Positions 1-15,803 of a DNA stretch of 64,000 bases are shown here, one piece after another (position 1 is the first letter of the stretch; each line of letters begins with the position of its first letter). The stretch spans positions 1-64,000 of the forward strand of contig JANNVQ010000030.1 in the NCBI GenBank assembly GCA_031414535.1, written 5' to 3'. Origin of the DNA: Gemmatimonas sp. (lineage in GTDB: Bacteria > Gemmatimonadota > Gemmatimonadetes > Gemmatimonadales > Gemmatimonadaceae). The translations under genes and the position numbers were made by a program. Under the pieces are notes generated by a model that saw nothing but the letters and a program-made list of their open reading frames with translations, searched no databases and was not told where the DNA came from.

Positions 1-87
1 GGCCTCGGCTCCATCTTGTTGAAAGGTTCGCCGAGGCCCCACAACCGCATTTTATGGGAGCGCTCGCAGCAGAAGCAAACGTTATAC
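1..87 (+). repeat. attC site, right half (cut by window start)
   Basis: ...CCCCACAACCGCATTTTATG...CAGCAGAAGCAAAC-GTTATAC (R' 81-87); same right arm as the other copies. Confidence 0.85.
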
Positions 88-101
88 GCACGCCGCCGGC
101 T

Positions 102-143
102 CTGGCGTACCCGAACGCAATTCGGTACATTATTCCGTACCGA
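102..143 (+). promoter_or_regulatory. Putative TA promoter/operator
   Basis: TACATT -10-like box (126-131) lies inside the inverted repeat TCGGTAC-N8-GTACCGA (122-143), just upstream of the antitoxin. Confidence 0.5.
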
Positions 144-159
144 CCTTCTGGAGCCCGCG

Positions 160-441
160 ATGCCCAAGCTGAAACCGTCCCGTGATATCCAGCCCGTCAC
201 GGAGTTCCGCGCCAATGCCGCGCAGGTGATCGAACAGGTCCGCGAGACCGGCGCCCCCGTCTTCCTGACCCAGCATGGGCGCGGCGCCGCCGTGCTCCTC
301 GACGTCGAGTCGTACGAAGCCCTCGTCGACGAACTGGAGCTGCTGCGCGATGTGCGCACCGCCGAGACCCAGGTCGCCGCTGGCAAGGGTCGCAGTCACG
401 CCACCGTCGCCAAGGCCCTGCGCGCCCGCCTCGCCAAGTGA
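160..441 (+). CDS. Phd/YefM family antitoxin
   Basis: IQPVTEFRANAAQVIEQVRETGAPVFLTQHGRGAAVLL is Phd-like; GGAG before ATG160; GTGA overlap with the toxin. Confidence 0.9.
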   Translation: MPKLKPSRDIQPVTEFRANAAQVIEQVRETGAPVFLTQHGRGAAVLLDVESYEALVDELELLRDVRTAETQVAAGKGRSHATVAKALRARLAK

Positions 442-740
442 AGGTCATCTGGTCGCCGCTTGCGGAGCGGCGCGCCATCGAAGCCTTCGACGCCATCGCC
501 AAGGATCGGCCGCAGGCCGCCGCCAAGTGGCTGCGCGAGCTGCTTGCGCGTGTCGGCACGCTGGACCGGTTCGCGAAGCGTGGTCGCGTAGTGCCCGAGA
601 TTGGTAAGGCGACCCACCGACAGATCCTGCATCATCCGTATCGCATCGTCTATCGCGTGGACGCGAAGCAGGTGGTTGTGCTCACCATCCGGCACTCGCG
701 GCGCGACTGGGATTCGAGCGAGATCGTGCAGGGCGTATAA
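438..740 (+). CDS. RelE/ParE family toxin
   Basis: MKVIWSPLA...GRVVPEI...HPYRIVYRV...VLTIRHSRR; its TAA stop lies in the attC R'' box. Confidence 0.9.
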   Translation: MKVIWSPLAERRAIEAFDAIAKDRPQAAAKWLRELLARVGTLDRFAKRGRVVPEIGKATHRQILHHPYRIVYRVDAKQVVVLTIRHSRRDWDSSEIVQGV

Positions 741-871
741 CGACGCTTGCTACTGACGGTCGCGGGTAAGGATTGGGTTGGGCGGGGTGGCCGTGATGAC
801 CCGGGCTGGTTGCGGCCACCCCGCCCAACCCTTTCTATGATGAGCGTTCACAGCAGAAGCACACGTTATGG
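735..871 (+). repeat. attC site (intact)
   Basis: R'' GTATAAC; L'' GCTTGCTACTG pairs with L' CAGCAGAAGC leaving an extra G; R' GTTATGG; perfect 19-bp internal stem 775-793/813-831. Confidence 0.92.
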
Positions 872-898
872 CGACCAGGCAACCTTGGACGTGATCGA

Positions 899-1396
899 AT
901 GTCTCTCCGACAACTGACACTGGCGCTGTGCTTCTTGAGTGCGACCGTGGCCCATGCGCAGGCACGCACCCCGCGCACCGCAGCGGAAACTATCGCAGCC
1001 GCTCGGCGCACGCAGAATGAACTGCTGCGCATCGGACAGCTCGACTCAGCGGCCACGTTCTGGACCGAGGACATTGTCGTGTTGGCGGGGCTTGGCTCCC
1101 GCGTGGACGGTCGCGTGGCGCTACGAGACGCGTTTGCGCAGGATAGCATCGTGTTCTACCGCCGAGAGCCCGAGCAGGTGGACGTCAGTGCCAGCTGGCC
1201 GCTCGCCTTCGAGCGCGGTCGATGGGTCGGCGTCTTCCGCGGCGACACAAGCATCGTCCTCATCACCGGGTGGTACTCGGCCCGCTGGCTCCGTGAAGGG
1301 ACGCGGTGGCGCATTCAAGCCGAGCAGTTTGTCGCGAACGAGTGCCACCCTCTCGCGTGCACATGGCCCCTGGCGCCTCGGCGCGCGGCGCCATAA
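899..1396 (+). CDS. Secreted SnoaL/DUF4440 (NTF2-like) protein, cassette
   Basis: Signal peptide; FWTEDIVV...GRVALRDAF...AFERGRW...GWYSARW pattern; stop lies in attC. Confidence 0.75.
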   Translation: MSLRQLTLALCFLSATVAHAQARTPRTAAETIAAARRTQNELLRIGQLDSAATFWTEDIVVLAGLGSRVDGRVALRDAFAQDSIVFYRREPEQVDVSASWPLAFERGRWVGVFRGDTSIVLITGWYSARWLREGTRWRIQAEQFVANECHPLACTWPLAPRRAAP

Positions 1397-1526
1397 CGAC
1401 GCTTGCCGCCGACAGCCGCGGGTAAGGATGCAGTTGTGGGGCGCGAGCTTTATTCTATGGGACGTCCTGCGGCCGCCCGACAACTGCTTTTCATGGAAAC
1501 GGTTGTAGCAGAAGCACACATTATGC
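1391..1526 (+). repeat. attC site (R' GTT changed to ATT)
   Basis: CCATAAC-GACGCTTGCCG...GCAGTTGTGGG...CAACTGC...TAGCAGAAGCACAC-ATTATGC. Confidence 0.88.
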
Positions 1527-1540
1527 GAACGCCGCCGGCA

Positions 1541-1569
1541 TTGACGTGTGTCACGTTACACGTTACATT
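1541..1569 (+). promoter_or_regulatory. sigma70-like promoter of higBA with operator
   Basis: TTGACG-N17-TACATT; palindrome TGAC-GTGT-GTCA (1542-1553) and a CACGTTA direct repeat overlap it. Confidence 0.65.
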
Positions 1570-1574
1570 TCGGC

Positions 1575-1856
1575 GTGATCAAGACTTTCGCTGATCGGCG
1601 GACTGAAGAGCTCTTCCGCACAGGGAAAGCCAAGAAGGTGCCCGCCGACGTCGCGCGCCGTGCCCTGCGCAAGCTCGAAGCCGTGCACGTCGCGCATAAA
1701 GTCTCCGATCTCAAAGTGCCGCCCGGCCATCGCCTGCACGCCCTCAAGGGCGATCGCGCGAGGCAGCACTCGATTTCTGTGAACGACCAATGGCGCATCT
1801 GCTTCCGCTTCGAAGACGGGGACGCATTCGACGTCGAGTTCTGCGACTACCACTAG
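1575..1856 (+). CDS. higB: HigB toxin (RelE-like, proteic killer type)
   Basis: MIKTFADRRTEELF...PPGHRLHALKGDR..QHSISVNDQWRICFRF...DYH. Confidence 0.9.
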   Translation: MIKTFADRRTEELFRTGKAKKVPADVARRALRKLEAVHVAHKVSDLKVPPGHRLHALKGDRARQHSISVNDQWRICFRFEDGDAFDVEFCDYH

Positions 1857-1868
1857 CTGGAGTTTTCC

Positions 1869-2183
1869 ATGAGCATTGCCAACACCCGTCCGCTCGAGCG
1901 TCGGCCCATTCATCCCGGCGAGATACTGCGTGAGGACTTCGTGACCGAGTATGGCCTGTCGGTCACGGCGCTCGCCGAGGCCGCCGGTGTGTCGCGTCAG
2001 TCGATGAACGAGCTGCTACGCGAGAAGCGCGCCGTGAGCCCCGAGATGGCGCTGCGCCTCGGCAAGCTGTTCGGCACGTCGCCGGAGTTCTGGCTCAACC
2101 TCCAGCGCAATGTCGACCTGTGGGACGCGGCCCGCGGACTCAAGCGCGAGATTGCGCACATTCATCCCCTGCAAGTCGCATAA
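1869..2183 (+). CDS. higA: HigA antitoxin (HTH)
   Basis: PIHPGEILREDF...SPEMALRLGKLFGTSPEFWLNLQ; follows the toxin; stop lies in attC. Confidence 0.92.
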   Translation: MSIANTRPLERRPIHPGEILREDFVTEYGLSVTALAEAAGVSRQSMNELLREKRAVSPEMALRLGKLFGTSPEFWLNLQRNVDLWDAARGLKREIAHIHPLQVA

Positions 2184-2274
2184 CGGCGCTTGCTGCCGAT
2201 GAACGCGGCGAAGGATGCAGTGGCCCCACCACTGCTTTCTATTCAAGCGTCCGCGGCAAAAGCACATGTTAAAC
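2178..2274 (+). repeat. attC site (short, 97 bp)
   Basis: GCATAAC-GGCGCTTGCTGCCG...GCAGTGG/CCACTGC...CGGCAAAAGCACAT-GTTAAAC. Confidence 0.85.
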
Positions 2275-2287
2275 GCACGATCGACGC

Positions 2288-2316
2288 TTGTGACCTGATC
2301 GAGGGTTCAATACGTT
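2288..2316 (+). promoter_or_regulatory. Possible internal promoter of the MBL gene
   Basis: TTGTGA-N17-TACGTT ends 7 nt before ATG2324. Confidence 0.4.
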
Positions 2317-2323
2317 GTCGCAC

Positions 2324-3256
2324 ATGCTCGATTCTGGCCACCGCATACCTACAGTATCTCTCGCCGCAGCCGGCACTGTCATATTCGTGCTGTTCTTCGC
2401 GCTCACGCCGAGATCCGCGACCGCCCAACGCGCCGCTCTGACCGGTGCCTACGACTCCGCCGCGTGTCCCAGCTGCGCGGCCTGGAACGCGCCGCAAACA
2501 CCTCTCCGGCTCTTCGGTAACACCTACTACGTCGGCACGCGGGGGTTGAGCGCCCTGCTCATCACTTCGAATGAGGGCCATATCCTCATCGACGCGGGCC
2601 TCCCGAGCTCGGCGCCTCGCATTCTGGCGAACGTTGCCGCACTCGGTTTCCGCGCTTCGGACATCAGGATCATCCTCAATTCGCACGCGCACTACGATCA
2701 TGCTGGCGGGATTGCGGCCCTTCTGGAAGTCACTGGCGCGCGCGTGATCGCGAGTGCCGCAAGCGCACCAGTGATCACACTCGGCCTTCCCGACCATGAT
2801 GATCCGCAGCACGGCATTGCACTGCCGATGCCGCCAGTGCGCGATGTCGAAGTGCTCGACGCGGAGCAGGTTGTGCGACTCGGGCCGCTCGCGCTGACGC
2901 CCCACGCGACCGGCGGTCATACGCCCGGCGGCACCACCTGGAGCTGGCGTTCGTGCGACGGCGCGCGGTGCCTCGACTTCGTGTACGCCGACAGTCAATC
3001 GCCGATCTCCGAGGATGGCTTCCGCTTCACCGGCAGCACGCGCTACCCAACGGCGATCGCCGATTTCGAGCGAGGGCATACGTTGCTCGAGGCGCTTTCC
3101 TGCGATGTGTTGATCACCCCGCACCCGGGAGCGTCCTCGCTGTGGGAGCGCGCGACGACGGCACCCGAGGGATTGATCGACCGCCAAGCTTGCAGGCGGT
3201 ACGCAGCGTCAGCGAGGCGCGCCCTGCAGGCGCGGCTCGCCGTTGAGAAGCCCTGA
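2324..3256 (+). CDS. Subclass B3 metallo-beta-lactamase
   Basis: Signal peptide; WNAPQTPLRLFGNTYYVGT; NSHAHYDH, GHTPGG and LITPHP zinc ligands; FVYADS. Confidence 0.9.
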   Translation: MLDSGHRIPTVSLAAAGTVIFVLFFALTPRSATAQRAALTGAYDSAACPSCAAWNAPQTPLRLFGNTYYVGTRGLSALLITSNEGHILIDAGLPSSAPRILANVAALGFRASDIRIILNSHAHYDHAGGIAALLEVTGARVIASAASAPVITLGLPDHDDPQHGIALPMPPVRDVEVLDAEQVVRLGPLALTPHATGGHTPGGTTWSWRSCDGARCLDFVYADSQSPISEDGFRFTGSTRYPTAIADFERGHTLLEALSCDVLITPHPGASSLWERATTAPEGLIDRQACRRYAASARRALQARLAVEKP

Positions 3257-3607
3257 CCGTCCGCCGAACACGCGCAGACGGACTCGGGCATCAGGGATTT
3301 TGCACCTGCAGGTGCTCGTTGTACGCGAGGACGATGGCCAACCTCGTCAGGTGATCGATCTCGGTCACGGTTTGATGTGAATGCGGCTACCTGGCCGTGC
3401 GCGGAGCGAACACGACCAGCATCCACTCCTCGGTACCACTGTTCGCGTACGTTCGCGTGACACCAACCGCATCCGATGAGAGCGACGAGCACTGCCGTAG
3501 CCGGCGCGGCCGTCCGCTGCGGTGCGGCGGCAGCAGGCGAGAGAGCCGGGCGTTCCGCGCGCGGTCATATAGCGATCAGGCACGCTATGGTGGTGCCCGC
3601 TGCGCCG

Positions 3608-3649
3608 GCACATTTTATGGAGTGCCTGCCGCACAAGCCCACGTTTGCT
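3608..3649 (+). repeat. Degenerate attC right arm
   Basis: CATTTTATGGAGTGCCTGCCGCACAAGCCCAC-GTTTGCTGG resembles the arm at 48-87; its end nearly complements CCAGCTAGC at 4111. Confidence 0.6.
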
Positions 3650-3674
3650 GGACCTCAGCACACCAACGTTCCGA

Positions 3675-4118
3675 GTGAATACGCCCGCCCCTCACATCAC
3701 GCTAGATACGCAATCCGCTTTCGGGCGCCGCATTGGCGGCTGTCTCCTCGGATTCGTATTGTTCATTGTCTGCCTAACCGCGAGCGACTACATCGCGCGA
3801 CTGCTCCCGCCAATCGCGTTGCAGATTGGGGCGATCGTCATCGGGGTCGGTCTCATCCAACTCTTCCGGCTGGTCGCCGCACGGCGCTGGTACGTGGGGA
3901 CGCCGGATGTGGTCGAGATTCTCGCTGCGGACTTCACGAGCATTCGGCGTCGAGACCTCGCCGACATTCGATTAGAGTTTCCCCCCGACGCACCATTCTT
4001 TGAGCGCGCGTTGCACGAGACGCTCTACGTACTCAAGTGGTGCGCGCACTTGCTGATTTTCGCGGGTCTCGGAAGCCTCCTCCACTCGGGGATCCGCTAC
4101 TTCGGACTCGCCAGCTAG
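3675..4118 (+). CDS. Hypothetical membrane protein, cassette
   Basis: Three hydrophobic segments; lies between two attC-like sites. Confidence 0.55.
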   Translation: MNTPAPHITLDTQSAFGRRIGGCLLGFVLFIVCLTASDYIARLLPPIALQIGAIVIGVGLIQLFRLVAARRWYVGTPDVVEILAADFTSIRRRDLADIRLEFPPDAPFFERALHETLYVLKWCAHLLIFAGLGSLLHSGIRYFGLAS

Positions 4119-4173
4119 CGCAGCTTGCTGTCGACAGCCGCGGGTAAGGGTGCAGCAGAAGCAAACGTGATGT
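4113..4173 (+). repeat. Degenerate, internally deleted attC
   Basis: GCTTGCTGTCGACAGCCGCGGGTAAGG-GTGCAGCAGAAGCAAAC-GTGATGT; both arms are kept and the central stem is lost. Confidence 0.8.
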
Positions 4174-4188
4174 GCAAATGAGGTTTGG

Positions 4189-4596
4189 GTGATACTCAGG
4201 CTTACTCCACTACTCGTAGCAGTCCTCCCGATCGCTCTCCACGCGCGGAACCCAACGGTGCGCGAGGTGCCGCTTCGCGTCGATACCGTTCGCGTCGCGA
4301 CGGGTAGGACAGTTCTTCAATCCGGCAGTCGTGAAGGAGCTAATGGCGGAGATTTCGTCGCCTTCGTATCTGGACGTCAGTTGTGGACTATCGACGGGAA
4401 CCTCCGCGTTACGACACCAGTTCGATCCCCAGGTTTTCCGTAGCAGGCGAATCACTTTAGCGCCGTCTGCTTCGTCGAACGAATTGGGAGACACTGGGTC
4501 GTAGGCGCTGACTCTGGCGTCTATGTTGTGAAGCTACCGGTTCCTGGCTGGCGACCCTGGCGCCGTTCGGCCTGCTAGGACAGTTGAGGCGCGCGC
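4189..4596 (+). pseudogene. Degraded secreted-protein cassette
   Basis: Signal-peptide-like start, early stop at 4443; cassette ends GTGATGTGC/GCACATAAC still pair. Confidence 0.45.
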
Positions 4597-4636
4597 ACAT
4601 AACGATGCTCGCTGATTGACAGCTGCGGGTAAGCAT
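4597..4636 (+). repeat. attC left arm remnant
   Basis: ACATAAC-GATGCTCGCTGATTGACAGCTGCGGGTAAGCAT matches the family left arm. Confidence 0.7.
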
Positions 4637-4918
4637 CTGGATTGACTTCGATCGCGATACTGCGACCTTCGATGTGCAGTACGCCACCGCCGATGGTCGC
4701 CGCCACACCAATTGATGCGTCGTGCCGTCGCATCCGCTCGCCCGACAGGCGGTCCTTTGGGAGCGCCCGCTCCAAGGCACCGCATAGCGATGGACCCATT
4801 GCCCGGAGCGCTCGTGCCCGACATCGCCACCAACGTCGCACTCTGGCAAGTGGTCGCGATCGGCGCGCGTGGATTCGCACAGCCCCGAGAACTCGCCCTG
4901 AAGCTCCTCGCCGCCGGC

Positions 4919-4992
4919 AGCTAACGGCAGTTGGTGCAGATGGCCGCCCCAGGGAAGCAGGTGGGCGGCCGCAGCACAGCCACACGTTTATC
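4919..4992 (+). repeat. Short attC-like site
   Basis: AGCTAAC...GGCCGCCC/GGGCGGCC stem...GCAGCACAGCCACAC-GTTATCC. Confidence 0.65.
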
Positions 4993-5014
4993 CGACTTCG
5001 ACACGGTGATCTAA

Positions 5015-5956
5015 ATGAGAAGATTCACGGCCTGCGCGCTCCTTCTCTTCGCAACCAGTGGAACGCTATGGGCGCAGCAAGGCGTCCCGAGTTCGCCCGG
5101 CCGACACCGCATCGAGGTGCGCAGCTCGGCTGACGGAAGCCTGCAGCCGTCCTACGTCACTCTGCCTACAGAGCGTGGCGCGCCCGCCCCGCTCGCCGTC
5201 CTGTTGCACACGTGGAGTTTCGACCTCGAGCAGCGAGACTCGACGGTTGAAGCGGAAGCTCAGAAACGAGGATGGATCCTCCTCGCTCCCAACTTTCGCG
5301 GCCGCAACGATCACCCCCAGGCCTGCGGTTCTCCCGCCGCTCAGCAAGACATCCTCGACGCGGTGGCATGGATTCGCAGACACTACAGCGTGGACACTCG
5401 TCGCATCTACTTGCTGGGGCTCTCGGGGGGCGGCTACATGACAATGCTGATGGCCGCGAGGCATCCCGACCTGTGGTCCGCGGCAAGCGCTTGGGTCGGC
5501 ATTAGTGACTTGACGGCCTGGTACACGTCGCACAGCGAAGACCGGTACGGTGAGATGTTGCGCGCGTGCTTCGGCGGGAACCCCACCGCGAGCGACAGCA
5601 CCGCTCGTGAGTTCCAAGCGCGCTCCCCCGTCACCCACCTTGGTTCCCGGCACCGCGTTCCGATGGACCTGGCGGCGGGCCGCTACGACAGCGTCGTCGC
5701 CGTGTCTCACACCCTGCGCGCCTTCCAGTTGCTTGCTCCTGGGGTCGTGGCCGATGCCGACGTTGAGATGCTCATGTCAGACGGCCCGGGCCTTCCAGCG
5801 CCCGCCCCAGCCGATACGACGAGTGATCCGCTCCTCGGTCGCCGCATCTTTCTTCGTCGAGTGTCCGGTCCATCTCGCGTAACAATCTTCGACGGTGGCC
5901 ATGAGTGGGTGCCGCGCGCCGCGATTGAGTGGTTAGCGAAGCAACGTAAGCCCTAA
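5015..5956 (+). CDS. Secreted alpha/beta hydrolase (S9/prolyl oligopeptidase-like)
   Basis: Signal peptide; GLSGGG nucleophile elbow; FDGGHE His; stop lies in CCCTAAC. Confidence 0.8.
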   Translation: MRRFTACALLLFATSGTLWAQQGVPSSPGRHRIEVRSSADGSLQPSYVTLPTERGAPAPLAVLLHTWSFDLEQRDSTVEAEAQKRGWILLAPNFRGRNDHPQACGSPAAQQDILDAVAWIRRHYSVDTRRIYLLGLSGGGYMTMLMAARHPDLWSAASAWVGISDLTAWYTSHSEDRYGEMLRACFGGNPTASDSTAREFQARSPVTHLGSRHRVPMDLAAGRYDSVVAVSHTLRAFQLLAPGVVADADVEMLMSDGPGLPAPAPADTTSDPLLGRRIFLRRVSGPSRVTIFDGGHEWVPRAAIEWLAKQRKP

Positions 5957-6171
5957 CCGCTGTATCCGACTCTACCTTCCGTGCGTACCCTCCGGGAGGC
6001 AGTGATGGCCAAAACGCGCCGGGTGATTTGCTCGCTCAATACGAACATCGTCTTCAATGCGCTACGCCAGCCGGCCGAGCTCGACCGGTTGAAGACGTTT
6101 CTCAGCTGGGCGTTGCCGTCAACGGTGCTCTCAAGCGTCGTCGCCGCGGCGCTCACGACCAGCGCGCGGCC

Positions 6172-6240
6172 GTATGACGACGCTTGCTGCCGTCAACCGC
6201 GAGTGCAGTAGCGGTTGCGGACACCCTAGACACGTTAGCC
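6172..6240 (+). repeat. Degenerate attC
   Basis: GTATGAC-GACGCTTGCTGCCG...CAACCGC/GCGGTTG...ACAC-GTTAGCC. Confidence 0.7.
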
Positions 6241-6273
6241 AACGCCGCGCCGGCCAATCACCAAGCCCGACAA

Positions 6274-6735
6274 TCACGCCAACGTAGGTACCGACAGCTC
6301 AGACGTGCAGTGCGCGCATCGAGTCGCCCTGAGCGGAATGGGCGTGAGACACCGAGGACAGTCTTTCGTCGTCACCAGCGCGGGCGGCGGCGGTCCCTTC
6401 ATCTTGTTCACCGCCTTTACAAGCAGAAAGATGCAAAACGCGATGATCGTGAAGTCGATCATCGTGTTGATGAACGAACCGTACGCGATGACCGCCGCGC
6501 CAGCCTCCTGCGCTTGGACGAGTGAGGTGACGCCGGCCGTCTTGTCGGGATCGAGACTGACGAAGAGGTCCTTGAAGTTGACCCCGCCGAGCAACTTGCC
6601 GACCGGCGGCATCAGGATGTCGCCGACCAGTGACGTCACAATCTTGCCGAACGCGGCGCCGATCACGACGCCCACCGCGAGGTCGACCACATTGCCCCGC
6701 ATCGCGAACTCCCTGAACTCCTTTACCACTCCCAT
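6274..6735 (-). CDS. mscL: Large-conductance mechanosensitive channel with C-terminal CxxC-CxxC
   Basis: [33 protein letters not shown]...[15 protein letters not shown]...CAHC tail. Confidence 0.95.
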
Positions 6736-6819
6736 TTGCCGCTCCGGATGAGGTTTAGACTTGAGTGTACGCGGTCGAGATTCATGCACCCAATGCTGCA
6801 ACCTCGCCACAGACCCGCG

Positions 6820-6958
6820 CGCTAACGACGCTTGCTGACTGACAGCCGCGGGTATGGATGCAGTTCTGGGGCCGCCACGTCATCGTACATGGGACAGCCT
6901 GCGGCTTCCCCACGACTGCTTTTTATGAAAGCGTCCACAGCGGAAGCACACGTTATAC
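6820..6958 (+). repeat. attC site (intact)
   Basis: CGCTAAC-GACGCTTGCTGACTGACAGCCGCGGGTATGGATGCAGTT...ACTGC...CAGCGGAAGCACAC-GTTATAC. Confidence 0.9.
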
Positions 6959-7089
6959 CGACCACGCCAAGCTCGCTCCACCCTCAGCCATGGCCCAGTG
7001 GCCCGATTCGCGCGCTTCTATTCGCTAGCGTCGGCCGCTCTACTCAACGCGGAACCGCCGCGATCGATCCCAAAATAGCTGGGCCATGC

Positions 7090-7127
7090 GAGAAGGCCGG
7101 CGGGCTTCGCGCTCCGCCGGCCTTCTC
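7090..7127. terminator. GC-rich hairpin, probable terminator
   Basis: GAGAAGGCCGGCGG / CCGCCGGCCTTCTC inverted repeat just after the 7148 stop. Confidence 0.65.
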
Positions 7128-7147
7128 TGTTCAATCCCAACCGCGAA

Positions 7148-7645
7148 TCACCTGCCGGTCACAGTGGAGTCGGTCATCCCCATGAGATAATTGATCTTCC
7201 AGCTACCGTCCGCTTCCTTGTTGAGGCCGGCGATCCATCGGCCGGCTCGGCGCATCGTCTTGCCGCGGACGACGGTGGCATCTGCCCATGTGCCGGTCTG
7301 CGCGACGCGCCCTTCCGACAGGAAGGCGGTGTTGCGCACCGTGGACATCCACTCCGACGGCTTGCCCATGGCGAAGGTGGCCGAGTCGCGGGACATGATC
7401 GCCGCGCGCCCCACCAGCGTGGGCACGCCGGTGAGCTCAACGACGGCAGCATCGGTGTAGAGCGCATTCAACGCGGCGGCGTCGCCGGCGAGAATCGCTG
7501 CGCGATAGGCTTCGCCAAAGGGCGCAATCTCGGCAGCGAGCGCGGTGGTGTCGGGCGCGACGGCGGCGACAGCCGGTTGCTCCTTGGGCGTGCAGGCGGC
7601 GAGCGTGGCAACGGCCAGAAGGGCGGGAAGGAAGCGACGAAGCAT
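7148..7645 (-). CDS. DUF4440/SnoaL-like lipoprotein
   Basis: Lipobox LAAC; AGDAAALNALYTDAA...GRAAI...DGSWKI. Confidence 0.75.
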   Translation of the reverse strand: MLRRFLPALLAVATLAACTPKEQPAVAAVAPDTTALAAEIAPFGEAYRAAILAGDAAALNALYTDAAVVELTGVPTLVGRAAIMSRDSATFAMGKPSEWMSTVRNTAFLSEGRVAQTGTWADATVVRGKTMRRAGRWIAGLNKEADGSWKINYLMGMTDSTVTGR

Positions 7646-7989
7646 AGGGCAGGTCCTCGACGGGGGGAGAAACTCAATCGGGTCAGGCCGAGTATACGTC
7701 ATTATTCCTTTCCGCGCGAACGCAGTTGCGCCCGTGACACCCGAGACACCACGTGACGGTCGGCCTAGCGATCTCGGTCCTAGCTTGTTTCCCAGCGCTG
7801 ACAGCTGGCGCCCCCCTCCCCCGGACGATGCTCCGGCCTCGGTACGACACCCGGGGTGGGCGGCTACGTGACCCATAATACGCGACCCCGTGAGCTTGGG
7901 TCTGGCCGCGTCACCGACGGCGTTCGTTATCGAGCACGCGAGGTCAACACCGTCTAGCGCTGGGGGGCGGCGGTGGCTAGATAGCGTAC

Positions 7990-10203
7990 ATGCCTCGTCA
8001 TCTTGCCCGCTTCCTCGTGCTCGTCGCCGCCATCTCCAGCAGCGCGGGAGCTCAGCAGGAGGTACTGGAACCTGACAGCGGCACTCGCCGGCGACTCACG
8101 GCGCGGCGTGCGGCGGAGCCCATCACGCTCGACGGCCGCCTCGTCGAACCGGACTGGCAGCGCGCGCCGATCGCCTCGCAGTTCGTGAAGGTCCGCCCAG
8201 ACTACGAGCTGACGACGCGGTACCCCAGCGAAGTGCGCGTGCTGTTCGACGACGACAACCTGTACATCGGCGCGTTCAACCGCGACAGCGCCGGACTCAG
8301 CTCGTTGCGGATGCCGGATCTGCGTCGCGACTTCAGCCCGATGGAAAGCGACGTGTTCGCCGTGACCTTCGGGCCGCTTGGCGACGGACGCACCGCGTTT
8401 CAGCTGCAGGTCACGCCGCTCGGCTCGCAGGCCGATGTGCAGGCCTTCGACGGCGGCGCGAGCTTCAGCTTTAGCTGGGATGCCATGTGGCGCACGCGGA
8501 CGACGCGTTCGGATTCCGGCTGGGTGGCGGAGATCGCAATCCCGTGGACGTCCATCCGTTACGCCAAGGGACTCGAGTCTTGGGACATCAACTTCGTGCG
8601 CAACACTCGCCGAGCTGCGCAGTGGAGTGCCTGGGTGCCCTACCCGAGACAGTTCTCCTCGTGGCGGCTCACGTACTCGGGCCTGCTTGATTCGATTACA
8701 CCGCCTCCACCGCGCGCCAATTTGCGCTCGCGTCTCTACGGGCTCACGGAGAGCCGTCGCAGCAGTGCGGTAGGCGGATTCAATGGCAGCACAGGCGACG
8801 TCGGTGGCGAACTGATCTGGGCGCCCAGCGCCAACAGTTTGTTTGAAGCCACCGTCAACACCGACTTTGCACAAGCCGATGTGGACCGCCAAGTCGTGAA
8901 CCTGACGCGCTTCAGTGTGTTCTTTCCCGAACAGCGTCAGTTCTTCCTCGAGAATGCTGACCTTCTCACTGCGTCCAGCGCCGGTACCGCGCGACCGACG
9001 GGCGGCACGGCCAATCCCTTCGTGGTGCAACCGTTCTTCTCGCGGCGCATCGGATTGGGAGTAGATGGCACCCCCCGCCCGATTGTTGGCGGTGCGCGCT
9101 ACGGGTTTCGCACCGGGCGCACAGCCGTCGGTGCGTTGGCGATGCGGCAAGGCGGCATCGGCGCCACCGAGATGGACGCGTCTGACTTTGGTGTAGCACG
9201 AGCGAGTCAGTTCTTTGGGCGTTCCACGCGCGTCGGCGGGTTGGTGGCCTACCGCGATGGCTCGCGCGGCGGCGCAGGCACCAATGTGGTGTCGGCGGTG
9301 GACATGCTCACGCGATTCGGCGAGCAGGTGCAGTTAAGCGCGATGGTTTCCAGCTCATCGCAGAACGCAGAGACGGGCACCGCGGCGACTTGGGCGCTCA
9401 GCCGACGTACGCCGAGTTCGAGCCTCGGGCTTGCCGGCGCCTACGTGAACGATCGGTATTCGCCGAGCACGGGCTTCGTCTCGCGTCCGAACGTCATCAT
9501 GACCAGCCCGACGGCGGACATCACCCTCCAGCCAGCATGGCGACCCGCAAAACTGGTCTGGATTCGGCCCGAGCTGTTCACGCTGTTCTTCCACGATCCG
9601 GCCAGCAAGGCGCTGCAGGAAGCGCGCCTTCTATTGAACGCCGAGTTCCTTGGTGTAACCGGCGGCTCATTCACGCCATTCGTGGAGCACAACTTGCAGC
9701 GGCCCGTGAACAACGTGGCCCTGTTGCCCGGGGTGACGATTGCTCCAGGCGCGTACGACTACTCACGCTTTGGGGTGGACGTGAGCTCCGACCAGAGCGC
9801 GCAGATTGCACTCTCAACGCGAGTCTCGGCTGGCGGGTTCTTTGACGGAACGCAGGAGCAGGCCACGGTATCGGGACGTTGGTCGCCGAATCCGTACGTA
9901 TCAGTGCGTGCGTCGTATGAGATCAACCGCTTGCAGAGCCTCGGCACTGGGGACACATCGCTGGTGACGCATCTCGTGGGTCCGGAACTGCGCGCAAGTT
10001 TGAGTCCGCGCGTGCACTGGAGCGCGTTCTATCAGTACAACACGGTGCAGAAGAGTGGTGCGCTGAACGCGCGCTTCAGTTGGGAGTTCGCACCGCTGTC
10101 GTTCTTCTACATCGTCTACAACGATGGCCAGCCCATTCTCGATGGGCTGATGCCAAGATCGCGGTCGTTGATTGTGAAGCTGAGCTGGCTCAAGCAGCTG
10201 TAG
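7990..10203 (+). CDS. CBM9-like/DUF5916 outer-membrane protein
   Basis: ITLDGRLVEPDW; GWVAEIAIPWTSIRY; TVNTDFAQADVDRQVVNLTRFSVFFPEQRQFFLE. Confidence 0.8.
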   Translation: MPRHLARFLVLVAAISSSAGAQQEVLEPDSGTRRRLTARRAAEPITLDGRLVEPDWQRAPIASQFVKVRPDYELTTRYPSEVRVLFDDDNLYIGAFNRDSAGLSSLRMPDLRRDFSPMESDVFAVTFGPLGDGRTAFQLQVTPLGSQADVQAFDGGASFSFSWDAMWRTRTTRSDSGWVAEIAIPWTSIRYAKGLESWDINFVRNTRRAAQWSAWVPYPRQFSSWRLTYSGLLDSITPPPPRANLRSRLYGLTESRRSSAVGGFNGSTGDVGGELIWAPSANSLFEATVNTDFAQADVDRQVVNLTRFSVFFPEQRQFFLENADLLTASSAGTARPTGGTANPFVVQPFFSRRIGLGVDGTPRPIVGGARYGFRTGRTAVGALAMRQGGIGATEMDASDFGVARASQFFGRSTRVGGLVAYRDGSRGGAGTNVVSAVDMLTRFGEQVQLSAMVSSSSQNAETGTAATWALSRRTPSSSLGLAGAYVNDRYSPSTGFVSRPNVIMTSPTADITLQPAWRPAKLVWIRPELFTLFFHDPASKALQEARLLLNAEFLGVTGGSFTPFVEHNLQRPVNNVALLPGVTIAPGAYDYSRFGVDVSSDQSAQIALSTRVSAGGFFDGTQEQATVSGRWSPNPYVSVRASYEINRLQSLGTGDTSLVTHLVGPELRASLSPRVHWSAFYQYNTVQKSGALNARFSWEFAPLSFFYIVYNDGQPILDGLMPRSRSLIVKLSWLKQL

Positions 10204-10225
10204 AGAATCTGCAACGCTGCCGCCG

Positions 10226-10744
10226 CTAGAGCAGCCCATCAATCGGCAGCGTGCCCGCGGCGCCTTGGCTACCCTCCTGCATGCGCCGGTGATAGTCAAT
10301 CTGCCCAAGATGATATCCGAGATGCGCCGCGAGGTGCACAAGGAACCGCGACGTGCGGACTCTGTGCCCGGCCACAGGCTCGGGGAACTCTGCGCCGAGC
10401 GTATCATCGTCGAGAGTTAGCAGCGCCGCATCTACGGCGACTCGTGCGGCTTGCAGCTCCAACACCACCGCCGCGCGAGACATTGGTGGCTCGGCGCGCG
10501 GCGTGAATTCCTCGGCGCGATTGCGGGTGTACGTCGCTGCTCCCAACCGTACACCGATGAAGTGATGGAGATTCCCCGCCAAGTGACGCGCGAGGATTCC
10601 GCCGGAATTGCTGAGGCCGGGGACGGCGCGCCAGAGCGATGCATCGTCGGTGTAGGCCTCGACTTCACGGATGGTTGAGTCAATATCGCGCAGGATGACT
10701 GTGCGAATCGAGTCCAGAAGTAGTGCGGCTTGGTTGTCGCTCAT
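10226..10744 (-). CDS. DinB/DUF1572 family protein
   Basis: NSGGILARHLAGNLHHFIG...HLAAHLGYHLGQI. Confidence 0.85.
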   Translation of the reverse strand: MSDNQAALLLDSIRTVILRDIDSTIREVEAYTDDASLWRAVPGLSNSGGILARHLAGNLHHFIGVRLGAATYTRNRAEEFTPRAEPPMSRAAVVLELQAARVAVDAALLTLDDDTLGAEFPEPVAGHRVRTSRFLVHLAAHLGYHLGQIDYHRRMQEGSQGAAGTLPIDGLL

Positions 10745-10761
10745 GTGAGTGGACCGGTCGT

Positions 10762-12318
10762 TTACTGGAAGCTCCGCCGCGCCGGCGCGCAGACCAGCCA
10801 GTTGCGCGGATTACCCTGCGCGTTTGGCGGTAGCACGGAACGGTCACGCGGCACGCGCACCGGATCTTCTGACGCGAGGTAGGCCATCATCGCGGCGAGC
10901 GTTGCGTTGTTCTTCAGATCATCGATGATGATTTTGTCGTAGGTGTCGCGGTTGGTGTGCCAGGTGTACTGACGGTAGTCCGAATAGTGCGACTGCAACC
11001 GGAATCCTGGTGCGCCGCTGCAGAGGAACGACACGTGGTCACTGCCGCCGGTTTCCTGCGGCCCGGGCAGGTCGAGCTTGATGTGTTCCGAGATCTCGGT
11101 GGGCAGCGCCGCGACCCATTTGGCGAGGTTCGCACTCGCGCCGAGCAGTCCCTGCGCTTGGATGTAGTCAACGCGCCACGTGCCGTTGTCTTGGTTGAAC
11201 AGCGCTTGCAGGTTCTCGACCACGTCGGGATGATCCTCGGTGAAGGCGCGCGACCCGACAAGGCCCAGTTCTTCGCCGCCCCAGTGACCTACGAGGATCG
11301 TGCGGCGTGGGTTGGGATACGTCGCCTTCAGAATTCGCATCGCCTCCAGCATGGTGATTGTGCCGGTGCCGTTGTCCGTGGCGCCGGTGGCGGCGTGCCA
11401 AGAGTCGAGGTGCGCGGAGAGGATCACGTACTCGTTGGGGAGTTCGCTGCCGCGCATTTCCGCAATCACGTTGAACATCGGCGTCGTGCCAGTGCCGCTC
11501 GTCTGCGCGTTGATGCGAATGCGCGGTCCCTGCCGGTTGGTGGCCAGGCGATGCAACAACCCGTAGTCCTCGCAGGACAGGTCGAGTGAGACCGCCGTGT
11601 TGGTGGATGCGCCGAAGATCTTGTTGGTGCCCCAGGCCTGCGACCAGCTCAGCGTGAGTACAGCGGCAGCTCCGGCTGCTTCGAGGCGCATAGCCAAGTT
11701 GCCACCGATCAACTGCGCGCTGTTTCGCGACGCCGCTTGTGCCGCGCGCCGCGACTCATTCAACGCCGTGACGGTCTGCGGGCGCGCCAGCCGCTCCAGT
11801 GACTGCGGTTCACGGCAGGTCGGCTCGACGGGGCTTGCGAGCACCGCCTTGCCACGGATGGTGGCCATCCACTGCGTGGCTTCCTCCGCCGTCGTGAACG
11901 CAGGCATCGTCACCACGTCGGCATCGATTGCACGCGCCGTGCCGGGGCTCCACGCGAGAATCTCCGCTTCGAGCGTCTGAACGCGCGGCGCAATCATGTC
12001 CACGTGCACTGCGCCCTGCTGCCATGCGCGCCAGGTGCCGTACTGCTCGCGGCGCGCCGTGACACCGAGTTCGCGGTACACGCGCTCAAGCCAGGTGCCG
12101 GCCGCGTTGAATCCGGGCGAGCCCGAGAGTCGTGGACCAATGGAGTCCATCAGCACCTGCGCGAATTGGGCGGCGCGCGACTGCTCCATTCCTTGCGTCC
12201 ACATCTGGCGCAGCACGGGGTCGTTCGTCCGGAACGTCTGTGAGGACGCGACTTGAGCGCTAGCGCTCAGTGCGAGCGTGCCGATGGTGGTGGCGCGAAG
12301 CAGCGGGGCGAATTTCAT
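10762..12318 (-). CDS. M28 family peptidase
   Basis: AHLDSW, ATDNGTG, WGGEELGL, GSDH, WHTNRD; signal peptide from MKFAP. Confidence 0.9.
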   Translation of the reverse strand: MKFAPLLRATTIGTLALSASAQVASSQTFRTNDPVLRQMWTQGMEQSRAAQFAQVLMDSIGPRLSGSPGFNAAGTWLERVYRELGVTARREQYGTWRAWQQGAVHVDMIAPRVQTLEAEILAWSPGTARAIDADVVTMPAFTTAEEATQWMATIRGKAVLASPVEPTCREPQSLERLARPQTVTALNESRRAAQAASRNSAQLIGGNLAMRLEAAGAAAVLTLSWSQAWGTNKIFGASTNTAVSLDLSCEDYGLLHRLATNRQGPRIRINAQTSGTGTTPMFNVIAEMRGSELPNEYVILSAHLDSWHAATGATDNGTGTITMLEAMRILKATYPNPRRTILVGHWGGEELGLVGSRAFTEDHPDVVENLQALFNQDNGTWRVDYIQAQGLLGASANLAKWVAALPTEISEHIKLDLPGPQETGGSDHVSFLCSGAPGFRLQSHYSDYRQYTWHTNRDTYDKIIIDDLKNNATLAAMMAYLASEDPVRVPRDRSVLPPNAQGNPRNWLVCAPARRSFQ

Positions 12319-12471
12319 AACTCCTCGGAATGACTTACCTGTACGACAGCGGAGCGTCGCAAAGGGCGACGAACATTCGTCGAGTATAGTGCGCGATGGC
12401 CGACTCTGCGAGACCAACGGCGCCACGAGAACGCGCGTACCGGCCACCGCGCATTCAACGCCGACCTCAAC

Positions 12472-12536
12472 GATGCAGTTGTGGGGCGGCCGAGTTATTG
12501 TACATGGGCCGCACGAGCCGCCGCCCCACAACAGCA
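12472..12536 (+). repeat. attC central-stem remnant
   Basis: GATGCAGTTGTGGGGCGGC...GCCGCCCCACAACAGCA matches the cores of the 1391 and 6820 sites; R boxes are lost. Confidence 0.7.
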
Positions 12537-12563
12537 GGCTCTTGACCCATTCGAGGAGGCGTC

Positions 12564-12905
12564 ATGAACGCATCTGCCCTGCCGGACGAGACCCTTGTGG
12601 ACGTCCTCGAGGCGCGAGCGCGGCGCACGCCGTTTGACCGCTTGGTCATCGATCTCGTCGGAGGCCTGCTCGTCGGGGCCGTCGCTATCTGGGCGCGGCC
12701 ACTCGGCTGGTTTCCACTTGCCGCGGCCTCCGCGTGCTTCGCCTTCTACGGTGCCTGGGCACTAGCCGAACGCCACCTGCGCGACAACCATCCGCACGCC
12801 GCGTGGCGCTCGCTCGCTCGCGTGGCCGGCTGGCTGGGCTTGGCCGCGTTCGTCCTCCTGCTCTTCGCCCTCCTCGGCGTTGCACTCGGGCCGATCAAGT
12901 CCTAG
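12564..12905 (+). CDS. Hypothetical membrane protein
   Basis: Strong RBS GAGGAGG; three hydrophobic segments; lies between attC remnants. Confidence 0.65.
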   Translation: MNASALPDETLVDVLEARARRTPFDRLVIDLVGGLLVGAVAIWARPLGWFPLAAASACFAFYGAWALAERHLRDNHPHAAWRSLARVAGWLGLAAFVLLLFALLGVALGPIKS

Positions 12906-12935
12906 GACATCGCCCCCGGAGCAACAGGATCGGTT

Positions 12936-13004
12936 GGACAGCCTAGCGGGCCGCCGCACTACTGCTTCTTATTGAACCGTCCACGGCAGCAGCAAGCGTG
13001 AGGC
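12936..13004 (+). repeat. Degenerate attC right arm
   Basis: GGACAGCCTAGCGGGCCGCCGCACTACTGCTTCTTATTGAACCGTCCACGGCAGCAGCAAGC-GTGAGGC. Confidence 0.65.
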
Positions 13005-13027
13005 CGATACTTAACTGGAGGTGCCCG

Positions 13028-13447
13028 TTGAAGAGGCAGCTGGTTCCGTTCATCTTAGGCCTCGTGTTCATCGCCGGTGCGATTGCAATCAACATGCAGC
13101 AGCGCGCCCTTCAGCGCGACGACATCCGTGATATTGCGGGCCTCCGCGCTGAACTTGACTCCGTCCGTGCCATGCATGCGCGCGCGAGTACTGCTGCTGA
13201 CTCGGCGAGCCTGGCCGAGACTGTTGCTCGGCGTACGTATCTACTCGGGCGACGCGAGTTCCATGTGGCGCCTCGCCAAGAAGCCATCGACGGCTGGTGG
13301 ACACTTACCGGCCCAGGGATCGCCTTCAGCGCCGTCGGAGTGCTCTTCCTCGCCGTCGCCGTCGTCTCCGGCCGTCGCGGGCGGGCCAGCGCGATTCATG
13401 CTGGAATCGCCGCGCCAAGCTGTCGCTCGAGGGACTGCGGCCGCTGA
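13028..13447 (+). CDS. Hypothetical protein with two TM segments
   Basis: GGAGG before TTG13028; N- and C-terminal hydrophobic helices. Confidence 0.5.
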   Translation: MKRQLVPFILGLVFIAGAIAINMQQRALQRDDIRDIAGLRAELDSVRAMHARASTAADSASLAETVARRTYLLGRREFHVAPRQEAIDGWWTLTGPGIAFSAVGVLFLAVAVVSGRRGRASAIHAGIAAPSCRSRDCGR

Positions 13448-13578
13448 TTGCCCGAGAGCCGAGCGAGATGGCGATCGCCGACGGCGTCGCGGTCATCAAC
13501 GGCACGAGCCGTGACGGCGGCCCTGCGTGTGCCAGCGTTCCGTTGCTCGGGACCGGTTGGAGTCTTTTGCCTCGCAGG

Positions 13579-13713
13579 GGATAGCGGAGGTTGGTGCAGG
13601 TGGCCGCCAATCAGGATGCGGCTGTGGGGCGCTGGAGATATTCTAGGAGTCGTCCTGCGGCCGCTTTCTAACTTTGTCTATTAATGGGTCCCCAGCAGTA
13701 GCAAGCGTTAAGC
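13579..13713 (+). repeat. Degenerate full-length attC
   Basis: GGATAGC...AGGATGCGGCTGTGGGGCG...CCTGCGGCCGC...CAGCAGTAGCAAGC-GTTAAGC; 135 bp. Confidence 0.75.
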
Positions 13714-13758
13714 CGCACAACCTCGGCAATCAGCGAGGCCGGCCGACAGCAGGCCCGT

Positions 13759-14433
13759 GTGCTCTGCTTTCCGGAATGCTTCATCCCTTGGTATCGGTGG
13801 CCGGATACGATGCTCCCCGCGCCCGACCCGGTGTTCCAAGCTCAGGCATGGGCCACGGTGGCCGATGCAGCCAAGGTAGCCGAGGTAGCCAAGGTAGCGG
13901 AAGTAGCCGCAGTCACCGTACTTCTCGGCACGGAACGTCTCACCGAGCGCGGCCTGCAAATTGCGGCGTGCGTGATCAATGCAGATGGCACCATCGCGGG
14001 CTGGCAACACAAAGGGCAGCTCGATCCGGATGAGGAACTGCAGTATCCCACGTTCGGTGCGGACCGTCGCGTGTTCACGGCGCGCTCCCTGACCTTCGGG
14101 GTCGTGATCTGCCTTGAGGGGTGGCGATATCCCGAGACGGTGCGGTGGGCGGTGCGGCGTGGCGCGCAGGTCGTGCTTCATCCTCACGCAAGTCGGGCTG
14201 AACTAGGCGGCTATCGCCCTCTGATGTTTGCCGATCCGGCGAACTCGTTTCACGAGAAGCCGATTCTGTGTCGGGCCGCAGAGAACACGTGCGACTTTGC
14301 ATCCGTCAACTGTGCGAGCGACGGCTCCGGCACGACATCGGCCGTCGCACGGCCGGACGGGTCACTGCAGTGCGTGCAGCCCCATGGGCTCGCCGGCCTC
14401 TTGGCGGCGCGGTGTCGGACGTCGCCTTTGTAA
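13759..14433 (+). pseudogene. Carbon-nitrogen hydrolase (nitrilase family), truncated
   Basis: CFPE, QHKGQL and ICLEGWRYPE (E-K-C triad); N-terminal strand appears missing; contains a 9-bp repeat insertion. Confidence 0.7.
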
Positions 14434-14462
14434 CTCGTGCTCAGGCGGCTCTCGTGCCAGCG

Positions 14463-14500
14463 GCCTAACCATGCGTTGCTGCTGTAGGTCGGGTAGATCA
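14463..14500 (+). repeat. attC left arm remnant
   Basis: GCCTAAC-CATGCGTTGCTGCTG; GCGGCCTAAC complements GTTAAGCCGC at 13707 (9/10). Confidence 0.65.
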
Positions 14501-14524
14501 CGCGGCGGGTGGTGGCAGTGAGGT

Positions 14525-14905
14525 TCGGAACAGCCATTCTCAACGCTCGCCGCGTCCACGGCAACGGCCCGCGAGATGTGCACGGATTGACCGAGGCGAT
14601 CCCAGCCGGCCTGCACGTCCTGATGCGCGGCGACGGCGCTGCCGCAGGGCATCTTGAAATTAATCTTCTCCTTGAACGCGACCCGTCGGCCCGCCGAGCA
14701 ACTGTCCCGCCAGCCCGCGCGCTCAATCGGTGTTGAAGAGCTGATGGAAGCGCTCGTGATGCGGAGAGAACTTTTTCATCCGATTCGAGATGCGTGCGCC
14801 ATCCATTCTCGGATGGCTTGATCCGTCTGCGGGCCGACAACCTGAGCACGAGGATGCCGTCACGGTCCCAAGCCTTGAGATGGGCGTCAGAGAGCGTCTG
14901 CAAAC
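14525..14905 (-). pseudogene. Phytanoyl-CoA dioxygenase (PhyH) family fragment
   Basis: Pieces in different frames: LSDAHLKAWDRDGILVLR; KFSPHHERFHQLF; FKEKINFKMPCGSAVAAHQDVQAGW...AVDAASVENGC. Confidence 0.7.
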
Positions 14906-14982
14906 AGAAATGGAAACTGTGGAAAATCGGCAAGGAACTTCAATCGTGATCGGTCGAGAATCAGGTGCACGTACCGCGCAAG

Positions 14983-15117
14983 CGCTGACCACGCGAGGGC
15001 AAAGCCCACCGTCCGGATGACGTGGTGAGCCCGCCGCCTTGTGCGTGCGCGCAGGCCTAGCGGCCGCCCCACCACTACTTTCTATTGAACCGCCGACAGC
15101 TCAAGCGAAGGTTATTC
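14983..15117 (+). repeat. Degenerate attC
   Basis: CGCTGAC...GGATG...CCTAGCGGCCGCCCCACCACTACTTTCTATTGAACCG...GTTATTC; 135 bp. Confidence 0.65.
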
Positions 15118-15127
15118 GTACTTGCGC

Positions 15128-15169
15128 GTACCTGGGTGTACCTGGGTGTACCTGGTGTACCTGGGTGTA
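15128..15169. repeat. Tandem repeat (GTACCTGGGT)x4
   Basis: Three exact 10-mers plus one 9-mer. Confidence 0.95.
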
Positions 15170-15196
15170 ACTGCGCGCACCAACTTCTGAACAGTC

Positions 15197-15721
15197 TTGA
15201 TGACGCCTATCATCCGGCGCGCGACCGACGCTGACGCTGCAAATCTCGCGGAACTCGCGGCCCGCACATTTCGCGACACCTTCGGCGCGGACAATCGGCC
15301 CGAAGATCTGGATATGCACGTGGCGACAGCCTACGGGACGGTGCAACAAGCACGAGAGCTTGCCGACCCGACCATCTACACGCTCGTCGCTGATCAGGCC
15401 GGGACGCTTGTCGCCTTTGCACAGTTGCGCACCGGCGACGCGCCGGACTGCGTCATGGGTAGCGCGCCAATTGAACTCTCACGGTTCTACCTCGCGGCCG
15501 AATGGCATGGGCGCGGCCTCGCGCAAACCCTCATGGACCAGGTCATTGACACCGCCCGAGGCGCTGGCGCTGCGACGCTCTGGCTCGGTGTGTGGGAGCG
15601 GAATCCGCGGGCCATCGCCTTCTATCGGAAGGCTGGCTACCTCGACGTCGGCGCCCACGTGTTCATTGTCGGCACTGATCCGCAGACCGACCGGATTCTC
15701 GTCAGGTCGCTCGCACCCTAA
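15197..15721 (+). CDS. GNAT acetyltransferase (PaiA-like)
   Basis: IELSRFYL...HGRGLAQTLM...LWLGVWERNPRAIAFYRKAGY. Confidence 0.9.
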   Translation: MMTPIIRRATDADAANLAELAARTFRDTFGADNRPEDLDMHVATAYGTVQQARELADPTIYTLVADQAGTLVAFAQLRTGDAPDCVMGSAPIELSRFYLAAEWHGRGLAQTLMDQVIDTARGAGAATLWLGVWERNPRAIAFYRKAGYLDVGAHVFIVGTDPQTDRILVRSLAP

Positions 15722-15727
15722 GGCCCC

Positions 15728-15799
15728 ACATCACGACGCTAGCGCACGCTCCATCACCGCTGTCTATTGAAGCCTTCATCTCACCAACACACGGTCTCG
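15728..15799 (+). repeat. Highly degraded attC-like remnant
   Basis: ACATCAC-GACGCTAGC...CTATTGAAGC...ACAC-GGT echoes both arms. Confidence 0.4.
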
Positions 15800-15803
15800 A
15801 GTC

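Follow-up and report, generated by a model that had tools for sequence, protein, structure and literature searches.

The 64,000-nucleotide stretch analysed here (the window) opens contig C30 of a Gemmatimonas genome of 3.7 Mb and 98% completeness, and near its beginning a metallo-beta-lactamase gene of subclass B3 stands directly behind an integron attC site. The question raised by this locus is whether the gene is a cassette, whether it can still move, and where it came from. The preliminary description took it for a possibly new environmental carbapenemase in a cassette context. Our analysis upholds an unnamed B3 enzyme in a cassette slot; on the other hand, the gene belongs to a native clade, its carbapenemase activity is a prediction, and its N-terminal cysteine pattern is like that of Rm3 and not that of AIM-1. 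We consider it somewhat better than an even bet that the gene, drawn from a resident family, became a cassette long ago and has since been stranded in a decayed slot.

The gene is an open reading frame without stops on the forward strand (2324-3256), and its 310-residue product, P0001, is a metallo-beta-lactamase of subclass B3 by every sequence and fold test that we applied. It scores 313.3 bits against the NCBIfam subclass B3 model NF033105 (cut-off 240) and falls below the cut-off of the HARLDQ non-B3 model (180 versus 350). Among the best 25 of 43 NCBIfam families, it stays under the cut-off of every named B3 family, a comparison that includes AIM, PJM, THIN, SMB, MSI-1, SAM, MIM and L1; the scores and cut-offs are 290 and 675 for AIM, 290 and 630 for PJM, 272 and 700 for THIN, 267 and 550 for MSI-1, and 248 and 400 for SMB-1. 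P0001 appears to belong to no named B3 family tested, GRD33-1 and ALG11-1 having been compared by description only; no GRD33 or ALG11 model is among those 25 families. Its best solved relatives by sequence and fold are Rm3 (52% identity), AIM-1 (51%), MEM-A1 (47%) and SMB-1 (42%), with Rm3 (PDB 5iqk) the top PDB match (E 5e-90, target-normalised TM 0.92). The top rows retrieved by Foldseek with the predicted structure (pLDDT 80, pTM 0.81) are all B3 or B3-like structures. A search of 72,556 plasmids returned no close relative, the best match being LMB-1 at 45% identity. Assignment to the AIM-1/SMB-1/THIN-B group, as first proposed, is therefore borne out, in the sense of an AIM-1/SMB-1/THIN-B/Rm3 neighbourhood. 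Near identity to a described enzyme, which the preliminary description had thought might undo its proposal if the homologues of that enzyme never sit in arrays, was seen with none of the enzymes compared, Rm3 being the best at about 52%.

The six canonical zinc ligands previously read in the motifs HAHYDH, GHT and PHP were all found, at exact positions 2684, 2915 and 3119. HAHYDH (2684-2701) supplies His116, His118, Asp120 and His121 of the standard numbering, each kept in 119-120 of 120 homologues; GHT (2915-2923) supplies His196 (H199) and PHP (3119-3127) His263 (H267), both from the sequence and the homologue alignment, and the HHH/DHH ligand set is complete (H121, H123 and H199; D125, H126 and H267). 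DPQ (2801-2809) holds Q162, the equivalent of Gln157 in the AIM-1 alignment and a glutamine in 120 of 120 homologues, and ADSQS (2987-3001) holds S224 and S226, the equivalents of Ser221 and Thr/Ser223 in the AIM-1 and homologue alignments; all five motifs lie on the forward strand. The available portion of PMC7392888 presents the HHH/DHH motif as the B3 hallmark, names Gln157 and Ser221 as substrate-binding residues and reports a serine at position 223 in MIM-1, as in P0001. Where several cysteines had been noted, six are confirmed (residues 48, 51, 211, 216, 260 and 290), and these, like the six ligands, Gln157 and Ser221, are conserved in 119-120 of the 120 homologues. The cysteine pairs align as those of Rm3 do, and the beta-2 cysteine of AIM-1 is replaced by an arginine (R73). 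Two non-ligand positions that are otherwise conserved carry rare residues in P0001: L134, where 113 of 120 homologues have Q, and R101, where 109 of 120 have L. At the N-terminus, residues 1-34 (2324-2425, forward strand) form a predicted Sec signal peptide, recognized by eye from a hydrophobic core and an A-T-A ahead of Q35; homologues share its start and diverge most here. P0001 would leave the cytoplasm via Sec and, from what is known of the family, would hold two zinc ions, through His116, His118 and His196 and through Asp120, His121 and His263. In the B3 family, a hydroxide bridging the zinc ions opens the beta-lactam ring.

From its sequence, P0001 is predicted to degrade penicillins and cephalosporins, and probably carbapenems. 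We regard beta-lactamase activity as likely, carbapenem hydrolysis as probable and high-level resistance as doubtful, because predicted B3 genes are usually active, their MICs are mostly below breakpoints, and P0001 is without the AIM-1 beta-2 cysteine. In the parts of these sources available to us, 6 of 7 predicted B3 genes were CarbaNP-positive (PMC6598227), 7 of 7 soil B3 enzymes hydrolysed imipenem in extracts, with carbapenem MICs mostly below clinical breakpoints (PMC5184135), and the AIM-1-type disulfide is tied to higher activity than that of L1, BJP and Rm3 (PMC7392888). A different account, independent of whether the gene can move, strikes us as rather unlikely: P0001 could be a B3-fold hydrolase that is a weak carbapenemase or none, with another natural substrate (lactones, for example), or a partly decayed allele. 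The arginine in place of the disulfide cysteine, the sub-breakpoint MICs of soil enzymes and the substitutions private to P0001 would fit such an enzyme, as would the precedent of MIM-1 and SAM-1, described in the same portion of PMC7392888 as lactonases whose efficiency on carbapenems is 10-100 times below that of AIM-1; yet the ligands and substrate-binding residues are all canonical, and the CarbaNP and imipenem results speak for activity. From the protein of its 94%-identical relative on X5, a contig from another study, P0001 differs at 18 of 310 residues, and 24 of the 35 displayed coding differences (of up to 88) fall at third codon positions, a pattern that therefore points to purifying selection, under which the gene appears to have been kept.

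One array of a large chromosomal integron reaches its far end in the window, and its sites erode over 15 kb. Counted on both strands, the attC matches in the genome number 128, corresponding to about 85 distinct sites, and an integron integrase is encoded at C31:45625-46566 (TIGR02249 score 414, cut-off 265, no internal stop); integrase and B3 gene lie on separate contigs, and the integrase is a putative partner of this array. Over C31:45625-48835 (L001), the integrase is oriented as its cassettes are, with an attI-like GTT just past its stop, which is the inverted-integrase layout and not the usual divergent one. Clusters of attC sites on C1, C9, C10, C14, C16, C30 and C31 run into ordinary chromosome, so the integron appears to be split into more than one array; on C16, a 14.7-kb stretch separates two attC sites. 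Between positions 1 and 15800 of the window, strong attC sites stand at 735, 1391, 2178 and 6820, and partial or mispaired ones at 3572, 4113, 4919, 6172, 12465, 12912, 13579, 14983 and 15720, with inverted, non-cassette-like genes (mscL, a peptidase and DinB) between the eroding sites. The toxin-antitoxin cassettes upstream, Phd-ParE at 160-740 and HigBA at 1548-2183, may stabilise the array end. Near that end, at 16400-17827, a 476-residue open reading frame of the serine beta-lactamase family (PF00144) has no NCBIfam match at E 1e-60; two genus relatives also carry, by eye, a PF00144-type gene beside their B3 gene. An Rfam scan of positions 1-20000 gave no match, and no transposase was present among the 37 window reading frames scanned in Pfam. 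A search of the genome for ISCR transposases gave 0 matches, a count that carries no weight, since the control matched nowhere either. Integrons are known in Gemmatimonadota (PMC8618304), and resistance genes are described as rare in sedentary integrons (bioRxiv 10.1101/2024.07.02.601686), both in the portions of these texts at hand.

The attC ahead of the B3 gene is owned by the HigB/HigA cassette (1548-2183, forward strand; PF05015, TIGR02607). It is 97 nt long (2178-2274, forward strand), ends in GTTAAAC at the cassette boundary, and is identified by covariance model, fold and sibling alignment: a model built from 41 other attC sites of the genome gives it 77 bits (E 4e-21), and its bottom strand folds with the R and L boxes paired (z -2.5; 3 of 200 shuffles as good). 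An internal deletion in the stem makes it 42 nt shorter than its closest siblings, it carries several substitutions, and it ranks among the lowest-scoring full-length sites of the genome. The gene had been placed 50 bp after an intact attC; a genuine, foldable attC is indeed there, and the ATG lies 49 nt past it in array orientation, a distance in the range of most intact cassettes, but the shortened site is not fully intact. The 49-nt leader, which has a 9-mer in common with attC 5' ends, was considered as a collapsed attC and dropped, with no model match up to E 5.

This leader contains, on the forward strand, a weak candidate for a leaderless promoter (2288-2316), in which TTGTGA (2288-2293) is followed after 17 nt by TACGTT (2311-2316) and after a further 7 nt by the ATG. 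The preliminary description had the motifs and spacing exactly right and they fit the leaderless pattern of the genome, although with 7 nt the arrangement is strictly, not nearly, leaderless; the pair matches the sigma-70 consensus at 7 of 12 positions and falls below the threshold of a promoter scan. Genome-wide, TANNNT is most frequent 6 nt ahead of the ATG (in 90 of 1864 crude gene calls, versus about 5-19 at other positions), and a Shine-Dalgarno motif precedes 7 of 170 TANNNT-type genes versus 374 of 1694 others. In other words, many genes of this genome are of the leaderless type, having TANNNT 5-7 nt ahead of their ATG but lacking a Shine-Dalgarno motif, and the B3 gene, which also has none, is like them. 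The three closest titled relatives (L014-L016) have TANNNT 6-7 nt before the ATG, as do 13 of 80 loci overall, duplicates included. Position 2311 is a C in X5 and in X3, a contig from a further study, these being both relatives that cover the first T of the -10 box, and the T may thus be recent. We judge the chances that this is a working promoter to be about even. Expression of the B3 gene, if any, would come from it or from read-through of the upstream HigBA cassette; cassette-borne promoters are known (PMC8876359, in part).

On the other side of the gene, no intact attC follows the stop, as already reported; what had been missed is a decayed 3' arm of the genome's 95-nt attC type, at about 3572-3648 on the forward strand. 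Identified by covariance model and alignment, this remnant covers model positions 18-120 only (16 bits), has lost its R'' and L'' boxes and shows no attC-like fold. A complete attC of the gene's own (R'', L'', L', R') is absent, and the generic attC rule is negative as well. The cassette's own R'' agrees with the upstream R' at no fewer than 6 of 7 positions in 49 of 51 intact cassettes of the genome; on the forward strand between the B3 stop and the next unit, no R'' is found within one mismatch. With its own R'' absent and only the attC 3' arm left, the B3 unit therefore lacks what defines an excisable cassette. About 315 nt separate the stop from the remnant, an atypical tail given that 32 of 51 cassettes reach their end no more than 40 nt past the stop. 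It includes a decayed fragment resembling a DUF1801/YdhG-type gene (3390-3458, reverse strand); this fragment is convergent on the B3 gene and matches the L215 protein at 65% over 23 aa, that protein itself being a weak PF08818 match under the cut-off. No second copy of the tail turned up in the genome, nor did it have a Pfam match, and no DUF1801 gene adjoins the B3 gene in 196 loci. A hairpin after the stop (3250-3298, z -3) was rejected as a short attC, being without AAC/GTT boxes and without a model match. The next high-scoring attC downstream (6820-6958, forward strand, 117 bits) would bound a 4.7-kb composite unit with the B3 gene.

Parts of the stretch occur in seven public runs from five studies, among which no RNA run is listed; X1 and X2 come from the same study, and X1 is possibly the source of the stretch itself. 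On the contigs X3 and X5, at about 93-95% DNA identity, the gene is followed by the attC 3' arm seen in the window. On X5, which has 88 differences over 1201 nt, the upstream attC is 39 nt longer and has a different upstream neighbour; the gene is followed by the tail to 3446, by 141 letters whose content was not displayed and by the attC 3' arm. Where the window has lost the 5' arm, X5 is 8 letters longer, and the contig breaks inside that attC. On X3, the attC 3' arm comes directly after the B3 stop and the 5' arm is missing; 2 nt past the stop, the sequence agrees with the predicted R'' in 6 of 7 letters, a hint only, as it comes from one contig, 30 letters and a T-rich arm. X4 and X6 share parts of the tail, and none of the runs compared has a copy with a visibly complete downstream attC. 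Because X3 and X5, from other studies, show the same attC arm, the array context of the B3 gene is, on these alignments, a lineage trait and not an assembly artefact. The different neighbour on X5 indicates that the upstream cassettes changed, and does not prove that the B3 unit itself moved.

Relatives of P0001 (E 1e-60) are present in 83 of 400 genomes of the host family and in 4 of 54 other genomes of the genus. In a quick, unrooted tree of 110 rows, P0001 falls inside a Gemmatimonadota clade (SH-aLRT 96), where P0001-P0007 form a subclade of 7 members (SH-aLRT 95) with 83-94% identity; the closest genome relatives, at 71-80%, have ordinary genes for neighbours, for example those for a serine hydrolase and ABC transporters. 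The attC covariance model has 0 matches in 87 genome loci of relatives, two weak matches (E 0.2 and 0.4) in 31 loci and four weak ones in 80 metagenome loci, sets that overlap and in which many metagenome loci span only 1-3 kb; the model is specific to sites of this family, so absence outside Gemmatimonadota is weakly tested. As a control, the model was given 80 of the 84 B3-positive genomes and finds sites elsewhere in 49 of them; in the genomes of the two closest genus relatives it has 28 and 14 such matches. A sequence-only attC HMM has 0 matches on 165 loci, and a generic attC rule, which recovers 54 of 71 known sites, matches within 60 nt of the stop in 2 of 155 distinct B3 loci versus 2 of 775 random positions. 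One of these two matches is at L173; the other, at L051, was rejected as an attC because it is a near-perfect palindrome, without unpaired spacer and bulge and without a model match. A match at L114 (E 0.001-0.008) was also set aside, lying about 2 kb from the gene and being unlike the consensus. At L051:1900-5480, a B3 gene of 60% identity stands about 1.7 kb behind an attC-like site, with a Phd-ParE pair and other cassette-like genes; it is possibly a second case at an array end, with two genes without attC intervening and no score from the model.

Since about one fifth of the family genomes carry relatives, and those examined have no attC of this type nearby, the B3 family is, by these comparisons, resident in the host family and mostly outside arrays of this attC type, a native gene and not a newcomer, a place in an array being peculiar to this lineage. 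Whether homologues are followed by attC, a point that the preliminary description had raised, receives a divided answer: the genome relatives examined have no attC of this type nearby, and X3 and X5 have one as a 3' arm only. Gln157, proposed in the accessible part of PMC7392888 as a mark of horizontally acquired B3 enzymes, is present in all 120 homologues, which belong to a clade mostly without attC linkage in the loci examined.

We suggest that the B3 gene was recruited once in this lineage, that the cassette may then have drifted to the far end of the array, and that the flanking attC sites would have eroded afterwards, including the observed loss of the downstream 5' arm. This history of an old cassette, which we hold to be moderately probable, accounts for a gene behind a working-type attC, in array orientation, in a genome with an integrase and with close relatives in the same attC context; set against it are the missing R'', the 315-nt tail with its relic, an integrase on another contig and relatives without an intact downstream attC. 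Because the recombination site behind it has decayed, the B3 unit is likely stuck, without independent movement. The preliminary description had allowed that the gene may now be immobile or may be a non-cassette insertion, and with no complete attC of its own, immobility is indeed probable.

The insertion, which we keep as an unlikely rival, would have brought a chromosomal piece with the B3 gene by illegitimate recombination to the start of an existing cassette, perhaps a DUF1801-like one whose attC is the remnant, and the gene would never have been excisable. The missing R'' is what one would see, as is the convergent DUF1801-like relic between the stop and the remnant; the same tail recurs in X4, X5 and X6, other inverted genes unlike cassettes, mscL among them, are present at the array end, and in the closest genome relatives the gene is an ordinary chromosomal one that has a leaderless promoter. 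The position of the gene, 49 nt past the crossover and in array orientation as in most intact cassettes, argues instead for a cassette, and so do the 6-of-7 R'' match followed by the attC 3' arm on X3, if only as a hint, and the 196 loci in which no DUF1801 gene lies beside the B3 gene. That the gene is still mobile, either leaving in the roughly 4.7-kb unit between the sites at 2178 and 6820 or because relatives such as X5 keep a working downstream attC, is distinctly improbable: the bounding sites score well (77 and 117 bits), X5 has its 8 extra letters and breaks inside the attC, and C16 has its 14.7-kb stretch between attC sites, but both bounding sites carry mispairs, attC recombination falls with cassette length (bioRxiv 10.1101/2024.07.02.601686, in part), the 72,556 plasmids hold nothing closer than LMB-1, and the window reading frames include no transposase.

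We think it doubtful, though conceivable, that in this lineage a leaderless B3 carbapenemase gene, resident in the chromosome, became a true cassette with its promoter included; capture would then have been at the DNA level, because the promoter would be missing from any copy made of a leaderless mRNA. An array-borne gene and non-array orthologues in one genus form a rare pair for the question of cassette origin. Practical risk looks low, because the host is environmental, the unit has no attC of its own and no close plasmid relative is known from the search. What is new is an unnamed B3 enzyme in an unusual cassette-slot context, with low near-term mobility.

As an enzyme, P0001 is most readily compared with Rm3 (PDB 5iqk), from a functional metagenomic study, which likewise has an N-terminal CxxC and the other four cysteines, although 48% of residues differ. 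AIM-1 (PDB 4awy), PJM, SMB-1, THIN-B, MSI-1 and LMB-1 share with it HHH/DHH, Gln157, Ser221 and two equivalent cysteine pairs, whereas the AIM-1 beta-2 cysteine is absent from P0001, which scores far below each family cut-off. The comparison by description with two further enzymes weakens a claim to an unnamed family: GRD33-1, a soil B3 enzyme predicted from Gemmatimonadetes, hydrolysed imipenem (PMC5184135), and Gemmatimonadota B3 enzymes are placed near ALG11 (PMC13674405; name tables are in PMC10740994), in the portions of these sources available. In the same partial sense, AIM-1 and LMB-1 are tied to ISCR elements and not described as cassettes (PMC7855592), and SMB-1 is tied to ISCR1 (the title of a reference within PMC5184135).

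As for the setting, the class B cassettes tested in the available part of PMC11721406 are VIM and IMP, GIM and TMB are reported in integrons (PMC7855592, in part), and an Antarctic soil survey of 665 B3 sequences has 0 of 5 integron-linked beta-lactamases in B3 (PMC13674405, in part). In the literature searched, we came across no gene cassette described as encoding a B3 enzyme, most subscription papers and supplementary cassette lists lying outside it. The VIM, IMP, GIM and TMB cassettes, and resistance cassettes of sedentary integrons, resemble the P0001 unit in their short leader behind an attC, array orientation and integrase in the genome; VIM, IMP, GIM and TMB are subclass B1 with their own attC, whereas P0001 is B3 with a remnant of its own. 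In the literature found, integron-borne metallo-beta-lactamases are B1 and mobile B3 genes depend on ISCR or IS elements, and the cassette slot of the present B3 gene shows the integron route to be at least open.
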